A stretch of DNA of 64,000 bases. It comes from Somniosus microcephalus. Lineage: Eukaryota. Both the position numbers and the translations under genes were made by a program. The notes beneath the pieces were generated by a model that was given only the letters and a program-made list of their open reading frames with translations, made no database searches and was not told the origin of the DNA. The DNA lies in the NCBI GenBank assembly GCA_052327205.1, contig JBMRGM010000043.1, positions 31,186,001 to 31,250,000 on the forward strand, given 5' to 3'. Within the stretch, counting starts at the first letter, position 1, and each line of letters begins with the position of its first letter. Below are positions 3,116 through 64,000 of the stretch, piece after piece.

Positions 3116-3181
3116 ATATTACCGGAAATGCTGCCAATTTAGTGTATTCGGAGGTCACTATCAGAAAGTCACGAGACTGTG
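3116..3181 (+). CDS. Gene A cytoplasmic exon with ITIM LVYSEV
   Basis: Strong T-rich tract + tttag| and tg|gtaaat; 66 nt, phase 1-1; ITGNAANLVYSEVTIRKSRDC. Confidence 0.85.
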
Positions 3182-5665: not shown

Positions 5666-5679
5666 ACTATGTTTTCTAA

Positions 5680-9068: not shown

Positions 9069-9197
9069 GCTAACAAGAATGGTCCCAACGACTATTGTGT
9101 CACATACGCCATAGTTAACCGTGCAAACACTGAAGCTAGTTTGGAAGGAGGCCCAATGGAAGAAGGCTGTGTCTACGAAAACTTTCCACGGAAATAA
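9069..9197 (+). CDS. Gene A terminal coding exon with ITIM VTYAIV and C-terminal YENF
   Basis: ttccag| acceptor, phase 0; ANKNGPNDYCVTYAIVNRANTEASLEGGPMEEGCVYENFPRK*; AATAAA near 9778 and 9874. Confidence 0.85.
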   Translation, partial: ANKNGPNDYCVTYAIVNRANTEASLEGGPMEEGCVYENFPRK

Positions 9198-14121: not shown

Positions 14122-14152
14122 ATGATTCACATCTGTCGCCTTCTGACCTTGT
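14122..14152 (+). CDS. Gene B leader exon S1 (MIHICRLLTL)
   Basis: ATG + 31 coding nt ending t|gtaagt; same 31-nt phase-1 size as many FcR/FCRL first leader exons; 4 paralogous copies. Confidence 0.75.
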
Positions 14153-16885: not shown

Positions 16886-16915
16886 TGCAAATTACTCATC
16901 AGGCGACCACACAAG
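16886..16915 (+). CDS. Gene B leader mini-exon S2 (LQITHQATTQ)
   Basis: tcttctctcttgcag| and aag|gtatga; 30 nt, phase 1-1; conserved with splice sites in 3 copies. Confidence 0.75.
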
Positions 16916-19214: not shown

Positions 19215-19469
19215 CCCATGTCCCAGAAGTAGTCCTTAGCAATCCGAGCGATGGAATCGTGAAAGAAGGGGAGACATTTTACCTGCAGTGTCGATACAGA
19301 GGCATGAAAACATTGGCTTATTGGTATAAAGATGAGACTTATATTCATTTTAAATATATATTCTTTGAAAGATATGCAGATAGTCGCAGTGGAGCGTCTT
19401 ACCAGTGTTCAGTGCCGCTGCCTTGGTCCTCCTCTGAGAAGAGTAAACCTCTGGATTTAGTCACCATTG
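19215..19469 (+). CDS. Gene B Ig domain 1 (short C2-type, FcR D1-like)
   Basis: PEVVLSNPSDGIVKEGETFYLQC...WYKD...SGASYQC...SKPLDLVTI; 255 nt, phase 1-1, canonical splice sites. Confidence 0.88.
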
Positions 19470-21264: not shown

Positions 21265-21531
21265 CTTCTGATATGAATTTAACTCTGGAAGTGAATCCAA
21301 CATCCGCACTGTCAGGTGACAGTATTATCCTGAAATGTTTGATGCCTTCCTGGAAATGGAGAGAAGGTTTTCCCTTCCTGTGGTATCGAGATAAACAGTT
21401 AATAGCAGAAACTGACGAATCTCAGTACACCATAGAAAACGCAAAAGAGTCAGATACGGCACCATATCGGTGTGAACTCAAAATACGTTACAGGAAGTGG
21501 ATCTCCCCGAATGTAACCATCACCATAAAAA
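21265..21531 (+). CDS. Gene B Ig domain 2 (C2-type)
   Basis: LTLEVNPTSALSGDSIILKC...WYRDKQL...DTAPYRC; 267 nt, phase 1-1; donor a|gttggt matches paralog 54800. Confidence 0.85.
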
Positions 21532-22319: not shown

Positions 22320-22596
22320 AACTCTTCTCCAAACCTAAACTGAGGACTGAGCCTGCAGTTAAAATATTTGAGGTAGACCAGTTAAAATTCATTTTTTTAT
22401 TGAAACAATGCTGTTCAATATTAGGCTTCAATACACATTTCACAAAAATGGCAAAGCTCTGCAGTTGAATTCATACATCAACTCTAAGCACATGGGGGCA
22501 GCTTCTTTGAAGGGCTCGGTGACTTAGCCTTGTTGAGCAAATGCTTTCTACCACCGTGATAACAACAGAGTGATGAGGTTTCCATTACGGTAGAAG
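22320..22596 (+). pseudogene. Dead FcR D3-type Ig exon in gene B
   Basis: Homologous to 57686-57961 and 63757+, but the acceptor is cacag>caccg, with frameshifts, loss of the first Cys codon and stops. Confidence 0.85.
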
Positions 22597-24358: not shown

Positions 24359-24646
24359 GAATCCCAGTGTCCAAACCGGAACTGGCAATCAGCCCTGGTA
24401 AAGAGTTACTGGAAGGTGACACAGCGTCGTTAACCTGCTCAGTGTTCAACGGTTCTACCCCGATTACCTACATATTCTACAAAGGCCCAAATAAAGAACT
24501 CTTCCGAGAGGAGTCCAACCTAACCGAAATTACTTACCAAATCGGTAAAGTCAACCAAAGCACCCAAGGGGATTATATTTGTGGTGTTTCAAACGAAGCG
24601 ACCAGACGTCCTCTACACAGCGATTTTGTTACGGTTGCAGTGCTAG
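24359..24646 (+). CDS. Gene B Ig domain, FCRL membrane-proximal (D4/D5) type
   Basis: IPVSKPELAISPGKELLEGDTASLTCSVFNGSTPITYIFYK...GDYICGVSN matches the PVSxP...C...GSxPIxYxFY...GxYxCxxxN pattern; 288 nt, tacag|...g|gtgagt. Confidence 0.88.
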
Positions 24647-25029: not shown

Positions 25030-25622
25030 TTGTATTTGTATATGGGATTGGGCGTCGCTGGCAACATTTGCGTTAATTGGCCATCCCTAATTGCCCTTGA
25101 GAAGGTAGTGGTGAGCCACCTTCTTGAACCGCTGCAGTCCACGTGGTGATCATCCAAATTCAGTACCCTGTCCCTGCTTTCTACCCACATCCCTTGATCC
25201 TGTTAGCCTTAAGCAACATATCTAACTCCTTCTTGAAAATAATTAATGAATTGGCCTCAACTTCCTTTTGTGGTAGAGAATTCCACAGGTTCTCCACTCT
25301 CTGGGTGAAGAAATTCCTCCTCATCTCTGTTCTAAATGGCTTACCCCTTATCCTTAGACTGTGACCCCTGGTTCTGGACTCCCCGACTATCGGGAACATC
25401 CTTCCTGCATCTAATCTGTCGAGTCCTTTTAGAATTTTATACGTTTTATTGAGATCCCCTCTCATTCTTCAAAACTCCAGTGAATATAAGCCCAATTGAC
25501 CCAATCACTCCTCATACGGCATTCCTGTCATCCCAGGTATCAGTCCAGTTAATCAGCGCTGTACTCCCTCCATGGCGAGAACATCCTTCCTCAGATAAGG
25601 AGAACATCCTTCCTCAGATAAG
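25030..25622 (-). mobile_element. CR1 3' fragment (25160-25622) plus a LINE/SINE tail (25030-25145)
   Basis: MRGDLNKTYKILKGLDRLDAGRMFP...WNSLPQ on the minus strand. Confidence 0.88.
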
Positions 25623-25812
25623 TTACTTGAGGGCCAACAGTTAAAACTCGCCTGTTTGGTTGAAATATTTCACTCCAGTTCAGCGGCAGACCACAACTAT
25701 TACATTAAGGAAACATCACGGCCTGACGATTCGGGGACTTACCTTGGTAAAGCAACTACTTTGCACAGCGAGGTGAAGAAACTGAACAATCAGGTTTCAG
25801 TTTCAGTCAGAC
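25623..25812 (+). pseudogene. Dead D3-type Ig exon decapitated by a CR1 insertion
   Basis: Homologous to 59291-59569; 5' end and acceptor replaced by LINE sequence, internal deletion of the FYKDG strand, second Cys position is Gly; donor c|gtgagt retained. Confidence 0.82.
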
Positions 25813-26005
25813 GTGAGTACAATTTACTGCAATTATCTATCATCTTTCATCCACTAAATTACCAACACATGCACACAATGGGATTCTTCATTCTGGCACA
25901 GGGCTTATCTATATGTTTAAGATGCACTGTATAAATAAATGAATATATCCGTACATACTTGAAACCGTATTATGTTATTCATGGGATATGTTTATTTTAT
26001 TCCAG

Positions 26006-26107
26006 TGCAGATTCACACAACCGCGATCAGAGCCTCAGTTTTTACACTTTTTCTTGTTGCTGCCCTGATTGCACTGGTACTCGTCAATCGTCCCAACAAG
26101 AAACAAG
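26006..26107 (+). CDS. Gene B transmembrane exon with charged Arg (QIHTTAIRASVFTLFLVAALIALVLVNRPNKKQ)
   Basis: tttattccag| and aag|gtgagt; 102 nt, phase 1-1; hydrophobic run followed by a basic stop-transfer segment. Confidence 0.88.
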
Positions 26108-26631
26108 GTGAGTCATGTTTTACAGGCAGGTGATTGGCTCTATAGTCACGTGAAGGGCTTCAGTGTATTCTATATTCAGTTGCGACATTCAAAATGCAAC
26201 CATATTATTTGGGCAAAAGAGGGATAGTCTGGGCTGGAAAAAGAAAAATGTTATTTGAAATGACGATCTCAGAACAGACAGGAGCTTAAGACTGGGGCGA
26301 ATTTGCCCAGTTAAGTGTTTTTATTTCCCTTTGTGCTGTTCAGAATTGATATGCATGTGGCCGAGGGGTAGAACAATAAGTGGCAGCATCATTCGTGGTT
26401 AGTGTGAGGAGACGATGCATCCTAAAGGATTTGTAACGCGGTATATGGTAATATCTTACATGTTTCTGTATATCTTTTCTGTATTGATTCTGTATTAATA
26501 AGTCATTTAATGCACGTTTGTAAAAGTTTAGATTTAATGTGAATGAATACGTTTGCAGTTAAACAAATCCACCTGTACAGCAATATTTATTGTACAACTT
26601 GCTGAAGTAGGTCTCTTCCTGTTTTATCCAG

Positions 26632-26662
26632 AAAATTCTTCAAGAATTTCACAATCGTTTGG
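26632..26662 (+). CDS. Gene B cytoplasmic mini-exon (ENSSRISQSFG)
   Basis: cttcctgttttatccag| and gg|gtaagt; 31 nt, phase 1-2, fits both neighbours. Confidence 0.8.
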
Positions 26663-27579
26663 GTAAGTCCACGCAATTTTTAGCTGAATAAGCCATAGCT
26701 ATATCCCTGAATATACTCAGTCTCTGTATAGCTGAACTAAACGCGGTAAATGCTTGTGCGGTAGATTTTATCAATTGCATTGAACTTTAATCTGGCATTA
26801 CGGATCAGCCTCCTGTTATAGAAAACACCATATTTTAATTTAATTTGAGTTGAATGGGATTGAAAAACATGTGGTTTCTACAACGCGTGTCTGTTCTGCT
26901 ACACCACTTTTTATTCCGGGCACCGAGTTGGAAAATCTGCCCCATTGACGATAAGCCTTTACTGTAGCTCGCACTCAAACGATTACACTCCCTGCAGTCT
27001 ATAAGGAGTGATCATTTTCTAAGTTATGTCAGTTGTACCTGAACTTCCTAACTTAAACAGAGTGAAATTCGCCCTGCGTGGCACAGTAAAAGGGGTGATT
27101 ACAAATCGTTTTACAGTCCGCAGATTAGATTCCAGTGACTTGTAAACAAATATTGGGCGGAGTGTAAAAACTGTTGGAGTTTCGTTTAACCCTGCTCTCC
27201 ACCACCGCCCAAGAAGAAATTATACCCCAAACTCTTCAATCACTCAGTGAGCTGGACTATTCTTTAATCCTCCAATTTAATCCTCATGTAAATCACAGGG
27301 ACCTGAAGCATTCTAGGATTTGGTGTGCAGGGCGATTGCGCATGTAGTTAATTTTAGTAACATTCACACAGTGACTATCTCAGGCAATGGTCCATTTAAC
27401 TGAACAAGCTTTTCTGGATACAGTTCTACTATTGATCAGCTTGAACAGTGTTTGTTGGCTTGGAATATCTAGTCCCCTTGTGAATCCAGTCGCTGTTTAT
27501 TTTCCGACTCCCCTATGCTGGACATCATTCCACATGTGTTTTAACCTCTGACTGAATGTTGCTTGAACTTTCGATACGC

Positions 27580-29997: not shown

Positions 29998-30083
29998 GGA
30001 GGCAACTAGAAACAGACCTCCAAGTGAAGAGAATTCTGCAGACAATTCCGAGTCTGCAGGTGTGCGATCAGCTCAAAGCACCG
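29998..30083 (+). CDS. Gene B cytoplasmic exon (EATRNRPPSEENSADNSESAGVRSAQST)
   Basis: cttag| and cg|gtaagt; phase 2-1; paralog of 1238-1329 with Tyr>Ser. Confidence 0.8.
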
Positions 30084-31114: not shown

Positions 31115-32112
31115 ATCCTGAGTGAAATATGATGGCTCTCTACAGAATAAAATTGTGCCTTATGTAAAGAATCAAAGTTAAGTTATACTAATATTGCAGT
31201 TAATTTACTTGGATACTCTTAAGAGCCGAGATGGATTTCCTTCTCCACCACTCGGTCGAACGAAATAAAAGTGATCTTACTGTCCTTAGATATCTTTTTC
31301 TTAATCTTTATATTCGATCTGATAATTAATTCCTTGTGAAAACATATCAAACGAGTAACAGAAATGGACTCAAAATGTGCAATACAATAGAGAATTTTGC
31401 ATTGATAGAATGTTAACTTCCTTTCATGGAAAGTTTGAATCTTCTGACTGTAACGAGGCCCATGTGACATGAATCATCAGCAACTGGAAGGCAATCGAGA
31501 GCCTGAGCACCAAGAAGATAAATACAGATGTTCGGAGTCTACAGGAATCTACAGAAAATTCTGAAGGCAATAGTTGAAGCAAGCATGTTATTCCTACAAG
31601 TGACTAAAGAACGATATTACTGGGGAGCACCTCAGTTCGTGATGTTCATTCAAAGCAAAAACTGTCAATCGTCACGATTCAACCACGATTTGGATTTTTC
31701 TTCACAAGAGCCTCTATGTACAGAACCTGATTCATTTCATTGCTGTATACAGCTGTTGATGCCTCATCACAGAGAATAAGGGGCCCAAGTTGAATAACTT
31801 CAGCATCTGTTTCTGGATGTAGATGCCATGAGGCCAATGATCTAATGAAACTTTTGATAAACTAGCTTCCTGACTGTGCCTGAAATATTTTCATTCTGAC
31901 CTAAATGACTTTCGATCGCTTGGACATTTCGCTTGTATACGCCAGATTAATAACTGCTTACCTCCCAGATGTTTCGGGACATCTTCTGATTGATTGATTT
32001 CGCCTGGAGTTTCTGTATTGGTACTAATTGTCTGCTTATAAACCTGGATGTATCATTTCAGCTACTGAAGAATTGGATTAGGTTCTGGACAGTTTCATGT
32101 GTAAGCCTTATT

Positions 32113-48004: not shown

Positions 48005-48035
48005 ATGAAGCACATCTGTAGCCTTCTGATTTTCT
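48005..48035 (+). CDS. Gene C leader exon S1 (MKHICSLLIF)
   Basis: ATG + 31 nt, t|gtaagt. Confidence 0.72.
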
Positions 48036-50938
48036 GTAAGTGATTCTCAAATATTGCCAGTGCCTTTGAAAATCTGCGTCACTCACCCCGGACCCACAAT
48101 CAGAATAATAAGGCTCATTCTGTAAAAGTCAGCGACGCACTAAATTGATATTGACAGTTTCTGAAAGGAAGACATTCATTTAAAATGCGTTGAAATGTCA
48201 TTTTCTATGTTTCTGTTTTAATCAGAATTTAGTGCAACAACAGACCTAAGTTTGATTATTCAAGGTAACAGGATCTTTCCGCTCATCTAAGAGATCACTT
48301 TTGCTATAACAGGTTGCAGCTCAATAGGATTGCTTCTAAACAGCCTAATATTTTTTAATTTACCAATTATTTAGCCTCACCTGCAGAAACTGCTTTCAAA
48401 TTTCTAATTCTTGTAGTTTTGTTTATAAGTAGGAATTAACATTTTTATGCAATTCATACCAAGTGTCAGCGTTGTCCCAGTTGTTTCAATCTTACTAAAT
48501 GCTATTAATAAATGCGGTGAGCTTTGCTGTGCTTGGTCTCTGTGGCTAGCTGTTAATCTTGGTCTGTATCATTGCTTCATGATTTTGTGTGGCCCAGGCT
48601 GGCTTCTTGTTTAACATCTGCTATAGGGAGACAGGGAGATAGATGCATTTAAAGAGAGGGAGAAACTTTCACACATACACACACACACAGCTAACAAAAA
48701 ATGTGGAGAGAGACCGAGGCAGAGATAGAGTCAAAGAGAGAGAGAGCAAAAGTGAGAGAAAGAGATGGAGTCAATGTGTCAGAGTGAAAGTGGAAGATTA
48801 ACACACGAGAGAGACAGAGTCAAAGAGATACAGCAAGTCATAGACACACATGACTGGGAGAGACACACAAAAAGAGGCAGAGAGAGAGAAAATGAGGGAG
48901 AGACAAGGAGGTGCAGACTCAGAGTGAGAGAGACATAGATTGAATGAAACAACATGCAGTGACACTGATAGTCAATGAGAGAGAGAGCGTCAAATTGACA
49001 GACAGAGCAACTGAGAGTGACATTCAGAAAGTGAGACTGACATAAGGTAGGTCAGAGAGAGGGTGAGGCCGAGGGATCTACGGGCAAACAGATGAAGACT
49101 GGCAAAGTTTGAAAGAGAGAGATTGAGTCAGCGAGGGAGAGACAGAGAGAGCGAGAAACAGACAAACAGAAGGCAAACATTCAGAGAGGCGGTGGGCTAA
49201 AGTTTTCGTGAGAGAAAGCGAGAGAGAGCGAAAGAGAGATATGCAGTGCGAGAGACACACAGATAGCGACATAGCGAGACAGAGATAGAGCATTAGGATT
49301 TTTTTCAATGCAGCAATATAATTATATTTTTTTAATTCCTGGTGTAAGGGAGAACAAAATACAGCAATGTGCTAACCGGGCACCATTTTGAATTTCAGGC
49401 TCATTTAATATCTGCTGCCTAACCTGGAGTTAACAAAGCTGAAGAGATAACATTTACTTTGATTTAACTTGACCTAAACTGGCGGCTTCAAGGATTATGG
49501 CAGCGAACTTTATAATTGTGGATCTTTAATATTAATGTCTGATGCAATTTACTTGAATTTAGACAGAAGTGACTGATTATGGTCAAATGCCATTGAAACT
49601 GACTTGCTGTGAGATGCTGACGTCAGCACTCTATTGTCTTGTTAACCACTGGACCACAAGAGCAGAAAACAGGAACAAACAACAGGGTTTGCATCTTTAG
49701 TGTACCACCGACTCTTTCACCATAATCTCAACTATTTTAATAACATGCCATTAGTTGTGGGACCATGGTAGCCACAGCTAGTTCCACAGCTTAATGCGCT
49801 AATTCTTAAATGATAATTAGTAATTCGTAACCTGTTTGTTCTTGAGCTTATAATCACCCCCATGTTTCATTTGTTGCACAGCACATAACACCCACCTTGT
49901 GAAAATAATTGGCCAAATTGAATACTTGAAACATTCACCCTATTGAATCCAAACTGGACAGAAGGCCCAGGTTTTACATGTTAAACAATGAAATACAGAG
50001 ACATCTGAATTGATCATTGAACCAGCATCAGATATTGCCTAATTAGTGTGATTCCTCTGGTCTGAGGCGTGAAAAAATCTTCCTGCAGCCAGCTGCTTGA
50101 TCATGTACTGTCTTCACGAGCAACATTTGCAACCCAGTCATAACTTGACATGCTGATTAGGATAAAGATGTTTTAAATTATGATGGAAACATATGAAAAC
50201 GAGTAGCCCATTCAGCCCTTCGAGGCTGCTCTGTTATTGAATTATATCACGGTTGAACTGTACCTCTACTCCAATGACCCCCCTTTGCTCATGTTCGTGG
50301 ATTCAAGTCGCAGACCAAAGACTTGAGCACAAAAATCTGGGATCAAATTCCAGTGCAGTGCTGTGGGAGTGCTGCACTTTCGGTGGTGCCGTGTTTCAGA
50401 TGATACGTTAATGCGAGGCCCCTTCGGGGAGATTATCCCTGGAGCCCTGGGCAATATTTGTCCTTCAATCAACATAACAAAAACAGATTATCTGGTCATT
50501 ATTATCAACACTGTGTGAAAATTGACAGCTATGTTTCCTACAGTGACTACACTTCAAAAGTACACCTTTGGCTGCAAAGCGCTTTGGGAAGTCCTGAGGT
50601 TGTGATAGGCGCTATAGAAATGCACGTCTTTATTTTATTAACTAAAATCAATCTTGATCTCCATAATCAAAGTTCCAATTTATGCGCAGATTGCACAGCG
50701 TTCTTAGCGGATTGAGTTGCAATTTCTCACTACGCATTGTGTGAAAAGGTGCTTCTTCATTTCCATTTTAAATGGCCTATCACAAATTTTAAAGTAAAAT
50801 TTCCTTCTCCATGACAGAGCAAACACACTCAGTGGCTCTCGGAACAATGATTCATTTCAATCTTTGTCAGTTCCCTTTCATCTGGCAGCAACTTTTCCAT
50901 GTAGTCCTCAGACCATTAGGATCTTCAAAAAAAACCTT

Positions 50939-51704
50939 GGCCCGTAAATTCGGTTCTCCACGGGTGAGCACGCATGGGGTACTCTCCCGTAAGCCCAATG
51001 GAAGTGCCGGTTTAGTGCAAGCACTTTGTATGCGGGGGAAACCGGCGCTTCTGTTCCCCCGAAAGAAGGGATTCAGAGGTTGACAGCGTGCACGGGAGAA
51101 GCTGCGCATGCGCATCCAAGTTACGTTTATTTTGCAGATTTTCCCGGGAGGGTATGTCTCCAGAAGTTACACGTTAAAAACCAGGTGTGAGGCCTGCTTT
51201 TTACAAGGTAAGTGCGGTGAATTAACTAAAATTAAAAAAAATTTTCCTCAGGTTTATTATTTTAAAATACTTTAAAGCAAGGTAAGTTTATTTTTAAACC
51301 CGTTAGAAAATAAAATTATTTTTTTCAAAAATGTAAATTATTGTTTAAAATAGTTATTTCATGTAATTTATAGTTTATTCAAAAAACTGTGACGAATTTT
51401 TAAAATCATTTGAAGATTTAGTGATGTTTTGGGGCCCGTAGTATTGATAAGTTTTGACAGCTCTTCCTGTCAAACTTATGAATGGGCATTCCCTGCTCCG
51501 ATTGGCCCTCCATGGCGCACGTGATCCGAGGGAATGCATTGAACTAACTGCGCCCTTGGGATACGCAAGCACTCTGCGCCGGCAGTTGGAGCATGCCCAG
51601 GATCGGAATTCCACGCGGGCCCACAGCTCAACGTCAGGCGCGCAAAGTAAGTGCAGGTCGGGGGCTTGCACCCGCGGGAAGCCCACGACCCGAATTTCTG
51701 GGCC
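50939..51704 (+). mobile_element. MITE-like element, copy 2
   Basis: ggcccgtaaattcgg...ccgaatttctgggcc; colinear with copy 1; absent from paralogous sites near 16625 and 42338. Confidence 0.82.
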
Positions 51705-51964
51705 CTTATCTTTGTTCGTGAGAGGGTCAATCGACATAATTCGATGTATTATTATTTACATTCACATCAACTGAACTGAATACCTGGCGGCACGTATAGA
51801 CTGGCGGCAAATGCGGTACCGCCTATTTTATGTCCCTGCCAAAGTCGAATTTCACCCCCTCGGTGTTCCCTCTATTCAGCTGCATTACAGCTTAGCAGCT
51901 TAGGTCAAACTTGAAGATGGTCTCAGATAATGAAACATATTTTACATTGTCTTCCCTCTTTCAG

Positions 51965-51994
51965 TGCAAATTACTCATCAGGCGACCACACAAG
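51965..51994 (+). CDS. Gene C leader mini-exon S2 (LQITHQATTQ)
   Basis: ctctttcag| and aag|gtatga; identical to gene B S2. Confidence 0.75.
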
Positions 51995-52339
51995 GTATGA
52001 TGACAATAATGTCCATTCGGTTTGTGGAATGAACGCTTCCAATTTATAGCTAAAGGACAGTAACAATCCAACAATTGAGTAATTTTCAGTTGTTCGCCCG
52101 AGCATAAAACTGACCTTCTGGATACGCGAAGTTAAGAGAAACATTCGATCATCATTTTCATTGATTCAGTGGGAATGTAAAGTGGGCGGTTTCTCTCACG
52201 GTCGGCCAATCAGAACCGCAGTTTTAAGCCTCAGCTCCAAATTTAATGTCGACCACAATATGTTAAAGACAAAGTGACCTATAAATTGGTCTGGGTAACT
52301 GCCAGCTCAGTCACCTGAGGATTGGCAGCGAGTAATAAT

Positions 52340-52960
52340 AAATGAGTAATTATATGGATTGATAAAAAAACAGTTCTTTGATGAAGTAACAGCAAGTGTT
52401 GATGAAATTAGTGCGTTAATGTTGTGTATAGGCTTTCAAAAAGCGCTTAATGAAGTTCCACATAACAGATTTGTTAGCAAAATTGAAATCCATGTGAATA
52501 AGGGGAAGTGGCAGTGTGGATAAGAAATGGACTGAGACAAATAGCAGAGATTGGTTGTGAAGTGAATATTCAGTGGTGTCTCGCAGAGGTCTGTATTGGG
52601 ACCTCTGTTCTGTCTGATAATTATATATCACTAGGACTTGGGTATACAGGGGTACAATTACAAACCTTGCAGAAGTCATGAAGCTCGGAAATGTAGCTAG
52701 CAATGCGAAAGATAGAAACAGACATCAGAAGGATAAAGACAGACTGGTGAAATGGGCAGACACATGGCTGATGCAAATTAATGCTGGAAATTGCAAAGGA
52801 CATTTACTAAAAGTGCACCAGGGACACGGGATTTCAGTTGCATGGAGAAACGAGAGCTGTTCTCCTTTGAGCACAGAAGTTTAAGGTGTGACTTGATAGA
52901 GGTGTTCAAAATCATGAAAGGTTATGATACAGTAAATAAGGAGACACTGTTTAAATTTAA
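52340..52960 (+). mobile_element. Old degenerate CR1 RT fragment (paralogous pieces at ~17300 and ~43020)
   Basis: FQKALNEVPH, DRLVKWADTWLMQIN, DLIEVFKIMKG. Confidence 0.75.
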
Positions 52961-53290
52961 GCTAATTGATAGATTTAAAACGCCTACCGCCTGATACAGG
53001 GAGGCGATTGTGCCGCCCAAACATTGGTCCTTGTGAAAATGGTAGGGGGCAGAGTGTCGGCGTTAAATGGATGGTAAGTCTACCGACCCCATGTCGAGGC
53101 CATTACCACCCGATTTCAGCAAGTTAATTTCACTTCATGAATAGAAATTTCGATCAATAGACACCCGATATGTCGCACCTGGTTGGGACACTGAGTAGAA
53201 ATTACCCACTGTACTTACTACAGTGTATAGTGCAAAGACTGGAAGTTTCCAAATTTCTAATCATAAATTCCATTTATTGTCTTTCTGCAG

Positions 53291-53542
53291 CTCCTGGGCC
53301 GGAAGTGCTGGTTAGTTTTCCCAGCAGTGGTGTGGTAAAGGAAGGAGAGGAATTTAAGCTGCAGTGTCGATACAGTGGCAAAGCTATTTACACTAATTGG
53401 TTAAAAAATAATATACATTTACATGAACTTCAGAGTGAGTTTTATGAATCACTAGCAGACAGCAGCAGTGGAGGCTCTTACCAGTGTGATGTATGGTCAA
53501 ACAAATCGGAGAGGAGTGAGGCTCTGGAAGTGGTCACAATCG
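53291..53542 (+). CDS. Gene C Ig domain 1 (FcR D1-like)
   Basis: PEVLVSFPSSGVVKEGEEFKLQC...WLKN...SGGSYQC; 252 nt; paralog of 19215-19469. Confidence 0.88.
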
Positions 53543-53594
53543 GTAGGTGAACTTTGACACTTAATATCATAGAAAATAGACAAAAGACAGAATA

Positions 53595-53950
53595 ATAAGC
53601 ATTCATATAGCGTCTATCACGACCTCCGATTGCACTTCACAGACAATTAAGTACTTTTCAATATAGTCACTGATGTAACGTGAGATAAGTGACAGCTAGT
53701 TCGGGCAGAGCAAAGCTCCCACAAAGAGCATTGTAATAATGACCAGATCATTTTACACTTCTATGCTTGCTCTAATGATTGCTCTTTCAATTATTTTTGT
53801 TGGATTTTTGACGTCCATCTAAGTGGGGATATGGGGCCTCAGTATAATGTCTCATTGGAAAGGAACCGTTTCCTGCAATAACGACACCGGGAGTCTCTGG
53901 TGTGGGATTCGAACCAACGCCTTATTGTCGCAGAGGCGATTGAGCCACGC
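53595..53950 (-). mobile_element. Degenerate Deu-SINE-like element
   Basis: Reverse-complement similarity to the 15927 SINE head and tail. Confidence 0.6.
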
Positions 53951-54539
53951 CTACTGTTGATTATTGGCTGCTGAGTCAAACCGCTGGAAGTGGCCACCAT
54001 CAGTCGGTGAACTTTGACCCATAGTCAGCTCAGCTCTTGTCACGAAAATTTACGCTTTTAAAGAGGACTCTCAGTATATATTGTGGGACAGTGTATCAAA
54101 CATATTACTTACTTGAGCAAAATTGCCAAGTGGACACTGGGATGAATGATACCATTCTGCCGCAACTCCCTTCAACCAGCTCTGCTCTAAATAGAACAAT
54201 CCCAGCTCCTTTAGTCTCACCACACCCAATGAACAAATACCAGTCGTTCCTTGAGAGAGTACCGAGTTTGTTGCTGATTTGTAGAATCGGGTTTCGAAGT
54301 AAAAGTTATTTGATGAACGTTTGAAGGACAACATACGGGGCATCAGCTGAACATAAGAAGGGACACGTGACTTTCTAATGCCACATTTGTCTCTACAGCT
54401 TTTCGGGTTATAGGCCTGTTGTTCTTTACTGAAGTGATTACTATAGATGCACTCTAATGGAAATATACTATAGGATGTCATACCTGTAGTTTAACATATT
54501 ACAATTTGTACTTACTTAATATTTCTTACATATTTTCAG

Positions 54540-54800
54540 CTTCTGATATGATTTTAACTCTTGAAGTAAAACCAAGAGCCACGTTGTCAGGTGAAAGTAT
54601 TATCCTGAATTGTTTGGTGTCTGACCAGAAAGGGAGAGGATACTTCCTGTGGTATCGGAAAGAAGAGATAATACATGGAAGTTCTCAATCTCAGTACATC
54701 ATAACTAAAGCAGAAATTGCAGATGGGGCATCTTATCGGTGTGAATGCAAAATAGGCTACAGGAAGTGGGTCTCGCAGGAAGTAAACCTCACCGTAACAG
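54540..54800 (+). CDS. Gene C Ig domain 2
   Basis: LTLEVKPRATLSGESIILNC...WYRKEE...DGASYRC; 261 nt; paralog of 21265-21531. Confidence 0.88.
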
Positions 54801-56381
54801 GTTGGTCGCTGGCTTTGCTGTTTTCCTCCCAAAGTTGCTGCTTGTTAATTTGCTGAAAGATAGAAAACGATGCGAAGAACATTCTTTGGCTGGACAATTT
54901 TTGTTTAAGTTGGTAAATATTTGCAATTACTGGGAAAACATTCCAAGCTGTGCATTGTAGGCAAGCTTCTGGGTCGCATGTGGCAAAATCAGACACTGCG
55001 TTAACTGTAAGGGCCCCATGAATCCGTAGGAGTGCATGTCTCCTTCTCGGTTGCTCCTGAGAATTATCGGGAAATGTCGTTGGAGTTCATCTGCATTTCA
55101 TTTCCGTGCTCTCACGCTGCTGGGCGATTGCATGGGCATCCCCGTGCTCATATCATTAGGCCTGCATATGGGCTAGTAATAAGAGGGTGGTTAGAATGTG
55201 GAACTCGCTCCCACAGGGAGTAGTTGAGGGAACTGCAATTAAGGTGAAGCTAGATAATTACATGAGCGAGAAAGGAATTTAAGGATATCTTGATGGGGTA
55301 GATGATGAAGGCTGGGAAGAGACCCGTGTGGAAGATAAGCACCTGCATGGACCTATTGGGCCGAATGGCCTGGCTCTCTGCTGTAAATACCGTGTACAAT
55401 GTACTATGAGTCTGGAGGGATGTTTCTGGTCTTCCACAAAAGTTTCCTATTCATTTACAATGGCGGACCCCAAGAGAGGAGGGCTCTTGAAGGACACTGG
55501 TGGTGGAGCTTTCGTCCGCTTAATCTGCCAACCAAAGTCCTTGTGAGGATCCAAGGGCATCCTAAAGTGGTAACAAGGTAGGTAGTTATTTGAATTAAAT
55601 TCTCACACCCCAAACTCCTGCCTGTCGATCGTAGGTATTGGAAGATTTTGAACTGCTAATCTTTGGCTGCAACCAGAAAGCCCCATTTCAAAGTTAACAT
55701 GAGTCTCCTGGCAGTGATCTCGGTCCTACTGATGTGTATGCAAACCAACGTAAGACCATCCCAACATAGGCGGATTTGATGCTAATGGATGGAAGATTGT
55801 AGCTGGTTCAGGCTTATAGCTGAGGCCTGGAATATTTGGGGCACTCTTTACCTTAAGTTCACAATGCACCAAGGCACCTTGTGCCCACTGGCCGATTCAG
55901 AAGGCAAAATGAGCTGGATGCACTCCTTCCAGAATCTGGTGCTGTGGATGGAATGCTCCTCAAAAAATCCGGCGTAATTTCCTTCTTTTGAAATCAAAAG
56001 TATACATATACGGCGGGTTCAGTGAGCAATAAGTGATCCTTTGTGCCGGATTTTCTATTCCCTTTTCTGCTTATGAGTTTCTTAACCACCGTACCCAACA
56101 TAGATTATTTTCAGTGTTCCAACCTAAGAGTAGCTGGGCCAAATGGTGGGGAAGTGCTGCAGGAGGAGAGCAATATCAATGAACCCAAATTGGAACCATC
56201 AGTATATTCAACAGCAACTGTCCACTGCTTCCTTTCTGTTCTGTATTTGCCCCAGCCTGGATTGGATTTGGGATTGGGATTATATAACGTGTCCAATGTA
56301 TTCGGGCTGTTGTCGAAGCAGTTCTTCGTTTGATTTAATCATTTGTTAAACTAAACTATGAAATATTGTTCCCAACATTAG

Positions 56382-56636
56382 ATGGCGATGTGGCCTTCCA
56401 GGTCGGCCCACCTTCGGTTTTGGAAGGAGATGTTCTGAATCTGAATTGTCGGTACAGAAAATATTATTTGTGGAAAGATGTTGGCTTTTACAAAGGAAAT
56501 AGAAGGATCCACTCAATGAAGTTGTATTATTGGAACGCTCTGCATAGCATTAGGGTGAATAGTTCAAAAGACAGTGGATCATACCATTGTACTATTGACG
56601 AGAAAATTTCTCGAAGTGTTCATGTTCACGTTCACG
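56382..56636 (+). CDS. Gene C Ig domain 3 (FcR D2-type)
   Basis: VAFQVGPPSVLEGDVLNLNC...KDVGFYKG...KDSGSYHC resembles the FcR D2 pattern (LLLQ..VFEGD.L.LRC..V.F.+.G..KDSGSYxC); 255 nt. Confidence 0.88.
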
Positions 56637-57685
56637 GTACGTATGCAAAATTTCAATTGGTGATATCCCTCTTTAATATTTATAAATATTACTGGTCCGA
56701 GAATTTCTGAATCTGTACAAAATTATATATAGTTCTGTGATCTCGGAATAATTTGTTCACGTTAGGTCATATGATGTTTATCTAACAACGTGCTACTTTA
56801 GTCGATATTTAACACGGGCGGGTCTCCTCCCATGCCAGCTCCAGCAGATTTCTTTCTCCTCCCAACCCACCTTTGAGGAGAATTTGGCGGCTTCCTCCAT
56901 TACCACCATGTGACATCTAGAGGCTGACGGGCAGTTTTCTGCCACGAAACCGAAATTTGATGCTGCCTCTGTCCTTAATAAGCACGATGAGTATATTTGA
57001 CATAAAGTACCAGCAGGTCCTCGTGAGACCCTGGAACGTCAGTGGTCGGTCCGCTGACGAACATTGTGGAAGGATAGAATAAGCAGTGTGCTCCTCTCCA
57101 CTCTGTTTTGCTATTTTCACTTACGTGTTTGGCGCAAACTTCGCCACAGACCCCTAATAAACTATGGGAGCAGATTCCCTTGGATGCCCTTGTCATCGCA
57201 GCGGGTGTGTTATATCATCACTGATCCATCACCCTGGCCGTGAGAATCTGGAGTCTTTGTAAATTCAGATGGTGACAACGGAGCAGGGGGCTTTGTTGGG
57301 GACAGAGCGATTTTGCTGCGACCAATTGTGGAGTTCACCGTGGTCATAATAGATGGTGAGACACGGCAGATAATGGCTAAAAGAGAAAAGAGCTATGGGA
57401 GGATTCCTGCTGAAATATAAGTCTTGTCCTGGTTGGAATTTCTGTTTCAGCACTTTATATTAAGCAGATTAAGATCTCCGCAAACAAAGCAGCGAGAGGA
57501 ATTCCACAACAATATAGTAATGCTTCCTGCTCTAGTGTTCCACAATACAGCTGCTAGTTACCGTTAATTGTAGACGCCCCTCGTGGCGATTTGCGGTATT
57601 GCCTTGCTCCTATTAAAAAGCTCTGCTGTCTGTTTAACTCAGTGATAGGAAATGTTACCTGTCAATCCAGATTCTGCTTTCACAG

Positions 57686-57961
57686 AACTCTTCTCCAAAC
57701 CTAAACTGAGGACTGACCCTGCAGTTGAAATATTTGAGGGACACCAGTTAGTATTCATCTGTATTATTGAAACAATGCCGTACAGTAATGGGCTTCAATA
57801 CTCATTTTACAAAAATGGCGAAGCTCTGATATTGACTTCATACAACACATTTAAGCTCAGGGAGACAGCTTCTTTGAAGGACTCGGGGACTTACCTGTGT
57901 GAAGCAAATATTTCCTACCGCGTTGTGAAAAAGAGTGATGAGGTTTCCATTGTGGTTAAAG
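57686..57961 (+). CDS. Gene C Ig domain 4 (FcR D3-type)
   Basis: ELFSKPKLRTDP..IFEGHQLVFIC...LQYSFYKNG...DSGTYLCEA...VVKKS is the FcgammaRI/FCRL D3 signature; 276 nt. Confidence 0.9.
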
Positions 57962-59290
57962 GTAAGGACAGCCAGCTGTAATTATTGTTGAATGAAAGAA
58001 TTCTTCAGGGGATTATACTTAAATAGACATACGAGAGGGATCCAGTCTGGTAAAGGATTTACCCACAAGTTTATCACGTAATAATCAATTTTGAATGCAA
58101 CCTGCTAAATGACAGCGCCACCTGGTTCTTACACTATCCATACATTTGCTGAAAACCGAAGTTTTAAAAGCTGCTACGTTTGAGGACCAGCGCCCACTCC
58201 CAGTGGGTAATAGTAGCTTCCTGAAATAGTGTGGAATTGGGCGATATTGAATTTATCTCCCATTATATGTCCCGACCGTTTTTGCATCCATTGATCTTCA
58301 ATGGACAGGAATATCGCGCGTAGTGTAGAATTGGTGCAAGATTCGATGCCGTGCATTTTAACCCATAGCCCCAAGGTAAAGTTACCTTCCCTGTTTCTAA
58401 CTGGCATATTCAGCAGCGAGCAGAACCTGGTCAGGAACAGCAGGGTGATTAATCAGCCAATGCCTTACCACTTACTAGCCCCGGAAATCTTTTATAGTTG
58501 AAAACTCGGGGGTAAAATTTAACATTGAGAGCGCTAAAACTGAACGGCAGAAAATTGAATTGAAATTGGCCTGTGTTTATAAAGGGTGAGCAATCTGCTA
58601 CCACCGGTTTTTTACCCCAGACAAACTTGAATTTTCACCCCCTCCAATTTCAGTAGCGGTGGATGCAAAATGCCCGAGGTCACTAACGTCTGTGCCTCTG
58701 GTGCCCGGGGATTCCTTCCCAATCTTTTAGATCCGACCAATCATAACTCGAGCTTCGCATTTTCAATGGAGCAGGCAATCTGAAAACAAGGTGGGAGTTA
58801 TCAATCCTGTGTCGGCAGTGGATTTCAGAAAAATTGTATTGATAGTAGCTGAGCGTTTAACATGAAGGTCCTAAAATTTGCAGTTGCTGCCACAACGACC
58901 AAGGATATTTCAGTATTTAAGACCCGGGAGTAAAGCATCGCCTGGGCTGAGAGCTGAGTTCAAATGATGGGGTTGTGGGGTTGGGGTGTTGGGGGATAAT
59001 CTCACAGGACCCGCAGGATGTTTCTTCCATTCATTTCAATGGAAGGGTTAACTTGTTCCCAAATCTAGCCACGACAGGATGTTCAGACCTCAAGTGATAA
59101 CTGTGTCAAGGTCCCGAACTGCATATTCCCGTAGCAGAGCGCAATCAAAGATTATTGAAAGCCTCTTTCTCTGAGCTGCTGTCGGCTTTTCATTCTTCTG
59201 CTCATTAACGTGAGTTGTCCAAACACATAAATTGTTAAGTCTGTGATGGATGTGGAACCCGGAAAATCCATGCATTATTCTATTTTATAG

Positions 59291-59569
59291 AGGTCTTCTC
59301 CATACCTACACTGAGGGCTGAGTCTGGAGCTCAATTATTTGTGGACCAACAGTTAAATCTCGCCTGTTTGGTTAAAATATTTCGATCCAATACTTCCTTG
59401 AGACTCGTATTTTACAAAGATGGACAATCTCTCACTTCAGCGGCAGACAACAACTATTACATCAAGAAGGCATCTCGGCCGGACGATTCGGGGAATTACT
59501 GGAGCGAAGCAACTACTTTGAACAGTGAGGTGAAGAAACTGAGTAATCAGGTTTCCGTTTCAGTCAGAT
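59291..59569 (+). CDS. Gene C Ig domain 5 (second D3-type; F-strand Cys>Ser)
   Basis: EVFSIPTLRAE...LNLAC...LRLVFYKDG...DDSGNYWSEATT...VKKLS; 279 nt, open, canonical splice sites. Confidence 0.78.
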
Positions 59570-60641
59570 GTGAGTACAATTTAAGACAATGTTATAACAC
59601 TTTTAAAGAGAACATGAAAATCATAGAATACAGGTAGCGTACACCAGGGAAGTAAAAGTGTATTCACCAGGATAGACTTGAGGTATTGGGACTAACACTA
59701 CCGGGTTAGCCATAGCTAAAGGTTATTTCATTAGTGGTTTTTAAATGCAAATTCCGAAATTGGGCGATTAGGGAAAGATATTTTCTCTGATTGCGAAGAC
59801 AGGAAGGAGGGATCAGTAATGTATAATTATCATTAAAGCGGGAGGGTAGCGCTTAGAAGGACGTTCTTTATATAGACGAGTGCTGGAACATAGAATGATT
59901 TGCCAGGTGGAGCGGTGGAGTTAGATAGAATTTTACAGTGAACATGAGGCTAGTGGCAGTGCCCTCGGGCCTACTGATGTGCGCCTGTCACTGCCCTACA
60001 GAAACCAGCGTAAGCCCGTCCCAACATAGGCAGATCTCTTGCTAATGGATGAGAGAGTGTAGCTGAATCAGGCATGTAGCTGAGGCCAGGAAGGTTTGGC
60101 GCACTCTTTCCTTATCGTCACAACGCAACTCGGGCACTGTGTGCCCTCTGGGAGGCTCAGAAATCAAAAGGAGCTGGATGCACACCTTCCATAATCTGGT
60201 CGGAGGGGGGGATGGAATGCACCTCACAGAATCCGGTGGAGTTTCCTTCTGTTGAGATCAATGGAGTACATTTACTGTGAGTTCGGTAAGCAATAAGTGA
60301 TCACTAGTGCTAGATTTTCTAATCCCTTATGTGCTCGGGCGTTGCTTAACCGTCGTTCCCAAAATAGTTTATTTTCAGTGTATCAAACTAAGAAGAGCTG
60401 GGCCAAATGGTGGGGAGCTGCTGCACGAGGATAGATTATCAATAAACCCCATTTACAACCATCAGTAAATTCAACACCACCCGACTGCTGTTTCCTTTCT
60501 GTTCTTCTTTTTCCCAGACTTGCCTGGAGTTGGGATTGGGGTTTTCTCGTGTCCAATGTATACGGGCTGTTGTGGAGCAGTTCTCAGTTTGAGTTAAGCA
60601 TTTGTTAAGCTAAAACCGCCACATTTTGTTCCCAACATTAG

Positions 60642-60899
60642 ATCGCAAAGTGGCCTTCAATGTCGACCCACCTTCGGTTTTGGAAGGAGGTGTTCTGAAT
60701 CTGAATTGTTGGTTCAGAATGCATTATTGGAGGCATAAAGATGTTGGCTTTTACAAGGGCAATATAAGGATTCACTCAATGAAGTTGACCGATCGGAGAG
60801 CTCTGCATAGCATTAGAGTGAATAGTTCAAAAGACAGCAGATCATACCATTGCACTGTTGGCAATAAGGAATCACGAAGTGTTCATGTTCACGTTCAAG
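60642..60899 (+). CDS. Gene C Ig domain 6 (duplicate of the D2-type exon)
   Basis: VAFNVDPPSVLEGGVLNLNC...KDSRSYHC; 258 nt; close paralog of 56382-56636. Confidence 0.85.
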
Positions 60900-61035
60900 G
60901 TACGTCGGCAATATTTCAATTGGCGATATCGCTCTTGGATATTTATCCATATTACAGGTCCGAGAGGTTCTGAATCTGTCCACATTTATGCATAGCTGTG
61001 TGAGCTCGGAAGAATTTGTTCGTGTTAGGTCATAG

Positions 61036-61754
61036 AGGCCTTGAATTTCCGTTCGGCGGTTTCCTGCCGGTAGATGCCTCCAATCGGAAACAAATCTACG
61101 AACTTACCTGCTGGTTTGGAGAGCCCGAGGCTTCCGATCCTGGGCCTCTCCTGTTGGAAATGCGCAGAGGCCCAGGTATCCCAGGGGCACATACGGTTTG
61201 CAAGCGCTCCTGGGATCACGTGAGAAAGGCGAACAAATCAAAGAAGGGAATCCCCCTTCATACATTTGACAGGTCTGTAGGGACTGAACTGTCAAAAGTA
61301 TGATTGGGAACCACATTTAAAAACACACTAAAACAGTAAATAAACTATTTAAAATTACAAAATTAAAATGAATTAAAATTCCATTTAATTAAATATTTTA
61401 AACATAATTTATAGAAAAAAAATTAAACATTTTTACTGGGCTATAAATAATTTACCGTTTCAAGAGTATTTCTAACTTATAAGTGAGTGATCAAATTTGT
61501 TATTTCTAACTTTCATCACTCTTATGCCTACTTTTACCAGTCGGACGAATTCTACAGCCTTTCAGCTGCCGGAAGTTGTGCAAACTCTCCAGCCACAGAG
61601 GCTCTTTTCTTGGGCAAGTGGATCATCTGTCAAGAGAATTCTTGACAGATCGCAGGTGCCGGTTTTAAGCGCATACCTGAAATCGGTACCTGCAAGGCCC
61701 CTATGGGTGAGTACACAGCTCGTATGCACCCGTGGGGGTTGGAAAACTTGGCCC
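61036..61754 (-). mobile_element. MITE-like element, copy 3 (inverted, more diverged)
   Basis: Reverse-complement similarity to copies 1 and 2; absent from the paralogous intron near 56770. Confidence 0.72.
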
Positions 61755-62569
61755 ATGATGGCTGTCTAACACCGTGCTACTTTAGCCAATAATTAACCCA
61801 GGGTGGGTCTCCTCCCGTGCTAACGCCGGCAGCTTTCTTTCTCCTCCCGCCCCACCTCAGAGGAGAATTTGGCGGCTTCCCATTACCAGCCTGTTACATC
61901 AAGAGGCTGACGGGGAGTATTCCCCCACTAAACCGAAATATGATGGTGCCTCTCTCCCTAACAACCACGATGATGAGTTGACAAAATGCACCAGCAGGTA
62001 CTCCTGAAAATTCAGTGGTGGGTCCGCTGATGGACTGTGTGGAAGGACACAATAAGCAGTGTGCTCCTCTCCCCTCTCTTTTGCCCTTTCCACTTACCTG
62101 TTTGGCATAAGCTTAATCACAGGCTCCTAATAAAATCTGTACACTAATGCCATTGGATGCCCTTATCATCGCAACGGGTGAGTTATATCATCACTGATCC
62201 ATCACCCTGGCCGGGAGAATCGGGAGTCTTTTTAATTTCAGATGGTGACAGCTGAGCTGGGGGCTGGCTAGGGACAGAGCAATGTAGCTGTGGATATTGG
62301 TGGAGCTCACCCTGGTCATACTAGATGGTGAAGACGCAGCAGAGAATGGCTAAAAGAGAAAAGATCTAAGGGAGGATATTCCTGCTGATAATTAAGCCTT
62401 GCCCAGTATGGAATTCCGGTTTCAGCAGAATAAATTAAGCAGGTTAAGTTCTCCGCAAACAAAGCAGCGAGAGGAAATCCATAAAAACATAATAATGCTT
62501 CCTGCTCTAGTGATCCACAATACAGCTGCTGGTTACCATTAAGTATAGGCGCCCATCGTGGCTATTCTC

Positions 62570-63660
62570 TAGATGTAATCTCTCCAAATTTGCAGACAAC
62601 ACAAAGCTTGCTGGGCGTGTGTGCTATGAGGAGGATGCCAAGAAACTCCAGGCTGATTTGGAGAGATTGGGTGATTGGGCAAAAGCGTGGCAGATGCAAT
62701 ATAACGTGGATAAATGTGAGGTTATCCACTTTGGTGGCAAAAACAGGAAGGCAGATTATTATCTGAATCGCAATAGATTGGGAGAAGGGGAAGTGCAACG
62801 AGACCTGTTTTTCCTTGTGCACCAGTCGCTGAAGGTAAGCATGCAGGTGCAGCAGGTGGTTAAGAAGGGAATTGGCATGTTGGCCTTCGTAGCGAGATGG
62901 TTTGAGTACAGGAACAAGGATGTCTTGCTGCAGTTATACAGGGCCGTGGTGAGACCACACCTTGAGTATTGTGTGCAGTTTTGGTCAGCTTATCTGAGGA
63001 AGGATCACAGATCACAGAAACCCCACAGTGCAGATAGAGGCCATTTCGGCACATATCCCACCCAATCCCCGTAACCCCTACACCAAAACATATCCCCATT
63101 TAATCCCCCTAACACTAAGGGTCAATTTATCATAGCCAATCAACCTAACCCGCCATGGAAGGAGTTCAGCGAAGATTCACCAGGCTGATACCTGGGATGG
63201 CAGGAATGACGTATGAGGAGAGATTGGGTCGATTGGGCTTGTCCTTGCTGGAGTTTAGAAGAATGAGAGGGGATCTCATTGAAACTTATAAAATTCTGAC
63301 GGGACTGGACAGACTAGATGCAGGAAGAATGTTCCCGATGGTCGGGCAGTCCAGAACCAGGGGTCACATTCTAAGGATAAGGGGTAAGCCATTTAGGACA
63401 GCAATGAGGAGGAATTTCTTCACCCAGAGAGTGGTGAACCTGTGGAATTCTCTGCCACAGAAGGCAGTAGAGGCCAATACATTAAATATATTCAAGAAGG
63501 AGTTGTATATATTTCTTAAGGCTAAAGGGATCAAGGGGTATGGGGATAAAGCAGTGACCAGGTACTGAATTTGGTTGATCGGCCATGATCGCATTGAATG
63601 GCGGAGAAGGCTCGTGGGGCCGAATGCCAACTCCTGCTCCTATCTTCTATGTTTCTATGT
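62570..63660 (+). mobile_element. 5'-truncated CR1 with a nested inverted HE1-SINE 3' half (63005-63153)
   Basis: RPHLEYCVQFWSAYLRKD|SINE|MEGVQRRFTRL; flanked by ttctc direct repeats; absent from paralogous introns near 22220 and 57590. Confidence 0.9.
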
Positions 63661-63756
63661 TTCTCGGTATTGGCTTGCTCTTATTATCAATCTCTGCTAT
63701 TTGTTTAACACAGTGATAGGAACTGTTACCTATCAATCCATATTCTGTTTTCACAG

Positions 63757-64000
63757 AACTCTTCACCAAACCTAAACTGAGGTCTGAGCCTGCAGTTGAA
63801 ATACTTGAGGGAGACCAGTTAAAATTCATCTGTTTTATTGAAAATATACCGTCAAATATTTGCTTAAAATATTCATTTTACAAAAATGGCACAGCTCTGA
63901 TCTTGACCCCATACTACAAATATATTCTCACTGAGGCAGCTTCGTTGAAGGACTCAGGGACTTACCAGTGCGTAGCAAATGCTTTCGACTTTGGTGTGAA
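63757..64000 (+). CDS. Gene C Ig domain 7 (duplicate D3-type exon, runs off the window)
   Basis: tcacag|; ELFTKPKLRSEPAVEILEGDQLKFIC...YSFYKNG...DSGTYQCVANAFDFGV, open to the window end. Confidence 0.85.

Follow-up and report, generated by a model that had tools for sequence, protein, structure and literature searches.

The focal gene and its cluster

The window, by which we mean the whole 64,000-nucleotide stretch of Somniosus microcephalus DNA that was analysed, contains a gene that runs from a split leader through a series of Ig-domain exons to a transmembrane (TM) exon with an Arg codon and further to cytoplasmic exons (hereafter the focal gene). The ITIM exons of an upstream neighbour and the ectodomain exons of a downstream ITIM gene, both of a related class with Thr at the site of the Arg, are found in the same window (Table 1).

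Table 1. Features of the focal gene and of its neighbours (positions in the window; TM, transmembrane).
Feature	Position	Strand	Remarks
ITIM exon LVYSEV, upstream Thr-class neighbour	3116..3181	+	
Last exon VTYAIV + VYENF, upstream Thr-class neighbour	9069..9197	+	
Leader exon 1	14122..14152	+	ATG, phase-1 donor; identical in 9/10 sister copies examined
Leader mini-exon, 30 nt	16886..16915	+	
Ig domain 1, open	19215..19469	+	Hypervariable among sister copies
Ig domain 2, open	21265..21531	+	Best PDB matches are Fc receptors
Dead Ig exon	22320..22596	+	Acceptor CG, frameshift, two stops; skippable in frame; lesion common to the ITIM sisters L022 and L024
Membrane-proximal Ig domain, open	24359..24646	+	10 places with 99-100% identity, of which 6 precede an Arg TM and 4 a Thr TM
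Chimera junction	25144..25149	.	TGA microhomology between two different LINE pieces; ITIM-gene side left, Arg-gene side right
LINE fragment	25147..25617	-	Interrupts an Ig exon of the parent Arg gene
Ig exon remnant, LINE-truncated	25618..25812	+	5' part lost, ~45-nt internal deletion, second Cys missing, no Pfam match
Arg-class TM exon, 102 nt	26006..26107	+	Phase 1-1, AG/GT ends; Arg codon AGA 26029-26031
Cytoplasmic exon 1	26632..26662	+	No Tyr
Cytoplasmic exon 2	29998..30083	+	Tyr of the paralogs' EYAV motif is Ser in the focal gene
Decayed last ITIM exon	31425..31600	+	Acceptor lost, ITIM Tyr to His, 1-nt deletion
Downstream Thr-class ITIM gene, ectodomain exons	48005..64000	+	TM just outside the window (L031)

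The ectodomain of the focal gene is, by its sequence relationships, evidently of the FCRL type: (i) nine of the ten exons tested gave Pfam Ig-family matches, (ii) the best solved-structure matches are FcgammaRI and FcepsilonRIa for the second Ig domain, and FCRL5, FCRL4 and FcgammaRI for a full-length shark relative, and (iii) the database proteins nearest to the focal gene are shark FCRLs. A split leader with a mini-exon, followed by one phase-1 exon per Ig domain, is a feature of the FCRL/FcR family, and the focal gene has both.

Left of the junction (to 25149) the window is 99.1-99.3% identical to the ITIM genes L022 (from 12059) and L024 (from 9001), while right of it (from 25144) it is 98.5% identical to the Arg genes L002 and L009. 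Judged from these alignments, the focal gene is a recent deletion chimera, in which the ectodomain of an ITIM gene was joined to an Arg module. The chimeric structure is present in six of the eleven copies with an identical TM exon, the remaining five being of the parent type, and two of the latter, L009 and L010, possess the pair of leader exons as well as seven Ig exons that are free of stops and bounded by AG/GT ends. If the dead exon is skipped, the frame of the focal gene stays open through eight canonical exons, i.e. for 363 codons up to the second tail exon; inclusion of the remnant, which has an open frame behind a possible cryptic AG, extends it to 428 codons, neither form having a Tyr after the TM, and inclusion of the dead exon leads to a stop at codon 201.

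An ATG at ~15336 was rejected as a leader exon, since an in-frame stop is present in all copies, and the open reading frame at 5588-6298 corresponds to a LINE reverse transcriptase. Promoter and leader-intron segments are repeated at ~15336, 41061, 42598, 46150 and 49765, with an extra leader mini-exon between the focal and the downstream gene, which suggests partial duplications of 5' ends. The downstream Thr-class gene (L031/L032) carries an internal duplication of its D3-D4-D5 exons, in which the first D5 copy (59290-59568) is devoid of the second Cys and the second D3 of the Gly of its DSGSYHC motif.

The focal TM exon has at least 40 matches in the genome, all on the contig C43 in a tandem FCRL cluster, and many of them are spaced ~70 kb apart. 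Together with its flanks (181 nt), the focal TM exon is 100% identical at 11 places on this contig. One part of the array runs in the inverted orientation and holds copies that mirror others almost exactly (L009/L010 and L016/L017; 30.28-30.65 Mb versus 30.69-31.87 Mb), and a block at ~25.3 Mb recurs at ~30.3 Mb (25.28-25.42 versus 30.28-30.35 Mb; L012/L013 and L029/L030). Some of the copies may be duplicates created in the assembly. At a distance of ~15 kb upstream of L012/L013, which are orphan Arg TMs, lie two Ig exons of an FCRL-like type that is far more divergent (31-36% identity; L065 4531-5921 and L084 4464-5854), and related weak D6 matches are also seen on C21 near 69.8-69.9 Mb.

The transmembrane arginine and the cytoplasmic tail

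The initial annotation had proposed a TM exon with an Arg near its extracellular end, in the docking position known from LRC receptors. The exon proved to be real, and the Arg is residue 8 of the translation quoted there; it is followed by 18 uncharged residues and then by the cytoplasmic NRPNKKQ. In the Kyte-Doolittle profile the Arg is the third residue of the best window of 21 residues, whereas the best 19-residue window starts immediately after it. We place the Arg, on these hydropathy profiles, at the outer edge of the hydrophobic segment and of the bilayer. The distance from the Arg to the inner polar residue is 18, compared with 16-19 in seven frog NxxR TMs measured by script (an eighth, counted by eye, gave 17). 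The position of the Arg is thus similar to that in NxxR TMs as regards spacing, but the motif is different: the residues around the Arg read TAIR, without the LRC Asn at -3. The predicted complex of the Arg TM with two FcR-gamma TMs received a score of 0.07 and was given no weight for or against docking.

We read 38 TM exons, 30 from the genome search and eight from further stretches, with six other listed matches left out. Their residue-8 codon is AGA (Arg) in 21 and ACA (Thr) in 17, and a single branch (100/100) divides the two classes in a midpoint-rooted tree of 27 distinct sequences. The Arg of the focal exon is not a chance occurrence, being the hallmark of one of the cluster's two TM classes. 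The Arg class is further characterized by replacement of a TM Pro by Thr and by a change of the juxtamembrane FKLR to VNLP or VNRP, and its TM exon is open in all 21 copies. Thr occupies position -3 in 19 of the 21 Arg exons, the contexts being of the TAIR, TTIR or NTIR type. In the exons L020/L021 the sequence is TNTIR, which satisfies NxxR to the letter through an Asn at -3, with the other features of the NxxR module absent; this Asn arose secondarily, in a lineage whose Ig exons are frameshifted.

The two classes differ in their tails. The genome holds 25 copies of the ITIM exon, and one is located within 20 kb behind the TM exon in 17/17 Thr and 0/21 Arg cases or, when counted by tree lineage, in 7/7 Thr versus 0/7 Arg lineages; near-copies among the TM exons are not independent, and the split in tail type represents one evolutionary event rather than many. 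The survey of paralogs for TM Arg versus tail type that had been proposed as a check therefore gave a clean partition, and ITIM-bearing paralogs with the same Arg, which the initial annotation had named as evidence against its reading, were not encountered among the 21 Arg exons.

Instead, the genome search located a class-specific segment (31425-31900 in the window), which includes the decayed last exon, behind 18 of the 21 Arg exons; local BLAST placed it behind one further Arg exon, and it lies behind none of the 17 Thr exons. A single distant homologue of this exon (C43:25591587, minus strand) is intact and reads VTYATL ... IYENI. In all six Arg last-exon sequences aligned the ITIM Tyr is replaced, and five of them share the 1-nt deletion and the lost acceptor. 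The phase is 1 at the end of cytoplasmic exon 2 and 0 at the beginning of the last exon; hence, loss of the two middle exons would be expected to put the ITIM out of frame. The membrane-proximal S-x-Y-x-x-V (EYAV) motif is retained in six older Arg lineages, whereas its Tyr is replaced by Ser in the focal gene. As for the intact homologue itself (L073-L076), there is no other family exon within 36 kb upstream of it, and it may be either an orphan or part of a gene with a very long intron. The segment at 31700-31780 had been considered as a coding last exon and was rejected after alignment of this homologue. In a Thr-class gene, L049 (C43:25410686), the ITIM Tyr codon has become a stop and cytoplasmic exon 2 contains a further one, and decay thus evidently reaches the inhibitory class too.

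Origin of the arginine

The Arg and Thr TM exons with their flanks are 77-80% identical, the intron following the TM exon aligns between the classes at 67% over 754 nt, and the first two tail exons, which are separate cytoplasmic exons homologous to those of the ITIM genes, are the same in both. A single substitution, ACA to AGA, separates the residue-8 codons. Among 30 shark and ray FCRL proteins retrieved from NCBI, where they are annotated as 'Fc receptor-like' (P0004-P0033), 25 have a TM; these proteins resemble the Thr class in their Ig domain series, TM exon and ITIM tail and differ from the focal exon in that Arg is found at this site in none of the 25. The focal TM is identical to an ITIM-bearing TM from Heptranchias at 22 of 33 positions, to Thr exons of its own genome at 17-20, and to galeomorph TMs at 7-18. 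Because of the exon and intron identity, the shared tail exons and the absence of Arg from the other shark and ray FCRLs, the Arg module is a derivative of the family's inhibitory TM exon. We infer that the Thr (inhibitory) state is ancestral, since the outgroup TMs lack Arg and the Arg genes carry a decayed ITIM exon, the tree itself being midpoint-rooted.

The initial annotation had taken the Arg to be relevant to a shared FcR/LRC ancestry, and this part of it has to be given up, the exon being a derivative of an inhibitory TM exon by an ACA to AGA change, with the same intron and tail-exon layout and without NxxR. On that view the Arg would be the old docking module of LRC receptors and XFL, with its NxxR motif, passed down from an ancestor common to FcR and LRC, which would agree with the similar position of the Arg relative to the inner membrane edge, with the NxxR TMs of the frog FCRL-like proteins retrieved, and with the presence of an FcR-gamma-type TM exon in the genome. 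We consider such inheritance highly improbable, however. As described in the relevant parts of PMC6557307, the LRC module comprises Asn at -3, a DYT-like start and an acidic C-end, all of which are missing from the focal TM; the shark tail is encoded on separate exons, whereas TM1 and tail share one exon in Xenopus (PMC2413239, in its section on these genes); the exon with its flanks is ~78-80% identical to the inhibitory exon, and the intron behind it is likewise alignable; and the FCRL TMs of the other sharks and rays lack the Arg. Inheritance of NxxR is already contradicted by this exon homology.

A search of this genome for a canonical NxxR exon with a single frog TM stretch gave no match, and a protein search with the TM-containing frame left 0 of 136 candidates scored. 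DNA contigs from a sequencing run of another organism matched the class-specific flanks with 0-1 differences, the matching piece ending one base before the Arg codon; the TM is not covered by the run X4. Outside the sharks, the relatives P0085 (a bichir FCRL), P0103 and P0144 have an Arg near the top of the TM, no Asn at -3 and short tails, and are possibly further non-NxxR Arg TMs.

It is then tempting to speculate, at what we would call even odds, that sharks, without recourse to NxxR, arrived anew at an Arg TM able to dock on FcR-gamma or zeta through one transversion in the TM exon of an inhibitory FCRL, and that the cluster displays every step of this process: the charge was gained, ITIM exons were lost, the last ITIM decayed, a deletion brought the module under a hypervariable inhibitory ectodomain, and the genes were amplified and decayed.

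Function and comparison with known receptor systems

A genome search with Pfam PF11628 gave two matches, C14:86659861 and C40:10607082, each with a TM Cys and Asp, which we take from motif differences to be a CD3-zeta-type and an FcR-gamma-type exon, respectively; both are located on contigs other than that of the FCRL cluster. Shark FCRLs are now listed in database annotations; the shark passages of a 2014 survey report no FCRL or FcR-gamma homologues (PMC4016189).

Variability of the domains was compared over nine sister copies (five Arg, four Thr). Of the 249 nt of Ig domain 1, 12 are variable, versus 45 of 4508 intron nt (Fisher p = 3e-5), 11 of these 12 being scored as amino-acid changing and concentrated at codons 31-33, whereas variability of domain 2 is not raised (5/267, p = 0.2). 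Replacement changes in domain 1 occur in Arg and Thr copies alike, and one Arg copy and one ITIM copy have an identical domain 1. The pattern fits diversifying selection on a presumed ligand-binding face, and the changes clustered at codons 31-33 could in part be conversion tracts.

We favor, at a probability of roughly 0.58, the reading that the Arg genes encode, or until recently encoded, activating paired receptors, which would bind a ligand at domain 1, pair through their Arg with the Asp dimer of FcR-gamma or zeta, signal through ITAMs, and be opposed by ITIM sisters with the same ectodomain. Its formation would have involved the Thr to Arg (ACA to AGA) change at TM residue 8 on one branch of the inhibitory genes; the middle tail exons would have been lost, leaving the last ITIM exon out of frame and free to decay, and the Arg module was joined by deletion, at the microhomology junction, to the ectodomain of an ITIM gene to yield the focal gene. 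A transcript of the latter that skips the dead exon would encode a receptor of three Ig domains, with or without a 65-residue stalk, and with a tail of ~50 residues devoid of an ITIM, whose Arg could engage the two Asp residues of the FcR-gamma (or CD3-zeta) dimer, the signal being passed on by the ITAM of the adaptor. The activating type put forward in the initial annotation is thus supported by the tail split among paralogs and by the FcR-gamma TM exon in the genome, while the LRC ancestry attached to it is not. An inhibitory counterpart with a near-identical ectodomain does exist in L022/L024, up to the junction. According to those parts of PMC13107469 that deal with CD89, this receptor pairs with FcR-gamma via an Arg near the top of its TM, both Asp residues being required and assembly being sensitive to helix orientation; this sensitivity, together with the absence of NxxR, would by analogy count against adaptor docking in the shark, and the S-x-Y-x-x-V retained in the six older Arg lineages would likewise count against the activating reading.

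The ITIM loss could also reflect decay rather than adaptation, because most Arg lineages are damaged and the focal gene has two damaged Ig exons. The Arg class might then be a clade of decaying or non-signalling (decoy) genes, with the Arg an inconsequential interfacial substitution, the ITIM loss one deletion followed by neutral decay, and the eleven identical copies carried along by tandem duplication of ~70-kb units with intact inhibitory genes, a reading that we regard as tenable though rather doubtful. Of the seven Arg lineages, six are damaged or incomplete in the stretches read: no Ig exon of the family lies within 20 kb of L012/L013 or L014, L018 consists of leader and TM only, L015/L019 contain stops, and L016/L017 and L020/L021 frameshifts; in addition, four of the eleven copies of the focal clade are without domain 1 or more. 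Gain of the Arg and loss of the ITIM moreover map to one branch and constitute a single event, not a repeated one, and the Arg is located at the margin of the hydrophobic segment. In P0013 and P0042, two relatives with ITIMs, the residue immediately preceding the Arg site is a Lys, and a basic residue in this region therefore need not bind an adaptor. Decay of the class is, however, less readily reconciled with a TM exon that is open in every Arg copy, with seven open Ig exons kept in two copies, with a focal frame that is open once the acceptor-less exon, dead also in the ITIM sister genes, is skipped, and with replacement changes in domain 1 of Arg as well as Thr copies. The invariance of the Arg is by itself no sign of selection, since Thr is as invariant in its own class, and frequent decay is described for activating KIR and Ly49 as well (PMC2213150, in the passages on these families), so that decay does not separate these two readings.

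The RNA data, two raw runs with the same species label and unspecified tissue, barely cover the family and thus carry little weight as to expression. No read of at least 95% identity over 25625-26720 was found in them (17 and 1 reads at 80%), which agrees with decay as far as such thin coverage goes; at 90% likeness the signal consists almost entirely of repeats, and the single read over the TM has seven differences.

An activating receptor that relies on DAP10, DAP12 or a non-adaptor partner appears very unlikely to us. NKG2D indeed uses an Arg with DAP10 (PMC13107469, in its part on adaptors), and the residues around the shark Arg are unlike those of NxxR TMs, but the same part of that source places the basic residue of DAP10 and DAP12 partners in the middle of the membrane, an Arg at the top of the TM being suited to the Asp pair of gamma or zeta.

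If the activating reading is confirmed, cartilaginous fish would possess a paired activating/inhibitory FCRL system, and an LRC-like Arg position could then arise by convergence, so that position alone would be weak evidence of common descent of FcR and LRC. An Arg at the top of the TM would, if this is true, be an easily re-evolved solution, and the KIR-like birth and death of activating receptors would extend to cartilaginous fish. The Thr and Arg exons also provide a natural one-nucleotide pair for testing the minimum needed to dock on FcR-gamma. We found no report of a shark Arg-TM FCRL or of paired shark FCRLs in the literature, our coverage of subscription papers being incomplete, and the FCRL passages of a 2026 review do not cover sharks (PMC13337447). 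What appears to be new is hence an inhibitory-to-activating switch in an FCRL cluster of cartilaginous fish with a convergent, non-NxxR Arg. Already known, from the relevant parts of the respective papers, are the combination of an FcR ectodomain, an Arg TM and FcR-gamma in Xenopus (PMC2413239) and the switch by charge gain and ITIM loss in KIR and Ly49 (PMC2213150).

The closest parallel in architecture is Xenopus XFL, for which the sections concerned in PMC2413239 (see also PMC4536121) describe FcR domains, an Arg TM and association with FcR-gamma upon co-transfection, and argue for a common origin of FcR and KIR. Like the shark cluster, XFL is an expanded FCRL set in which ITIM-less Arg-TM genes are intermingled with neutral-TM ITIM genes, with domain shuffling and an Arg near the outer end of the TM (PMC2413239). 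XFL TM1, however, which shares its homology with the TMs of LRC receptors, is an NxxR exon that also encodes the very short tail, whereas the shark exon reads TAIR, is followed by separate tail exons and is a close derivative of an inhibitory TM exon.

With regard to the evolutionary route, activating KIR and Ly49 are described in PMC2213150, in the parts devoted to them, as having gained a TM charge and lost the ITIM, and as having then spread by recombination, with frequent decay. KIR2DS/3DS, macaque KIR3DH and activating Ly49 thus resemble the shark genes in charge gain and ITIM loss on one branch, recombination onto new ectodomains and many pseudogenes, the ITIMs of macaque KIR3DH having been lost via a frameshift caused by exon loss. 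They differ in that activating KIR employ Lys and DAP12, whereas in the shark an Arg at the top of the TM is found on the FCRL ectodomain of a cartilaginous fish and the adaptor is a predicted one. Finally, the LRC NxxR receptors (FcalphaRI/CD89, GPVI, NKp46, LILRA and OSCAR), as covered in parts of PMC6557307 and PMC13107469, share with the shark an Arg close to the outer end of the TM, which is expected to face the Asp pair of FcR-gamma or zeta; the shark TM has neither the Asn at -3 nor the DYT start nor the acidic C-end of these receptors, and it belongs to an FCRL-type ectodomain and to a TM exon that would not be related to theirs by common descent.
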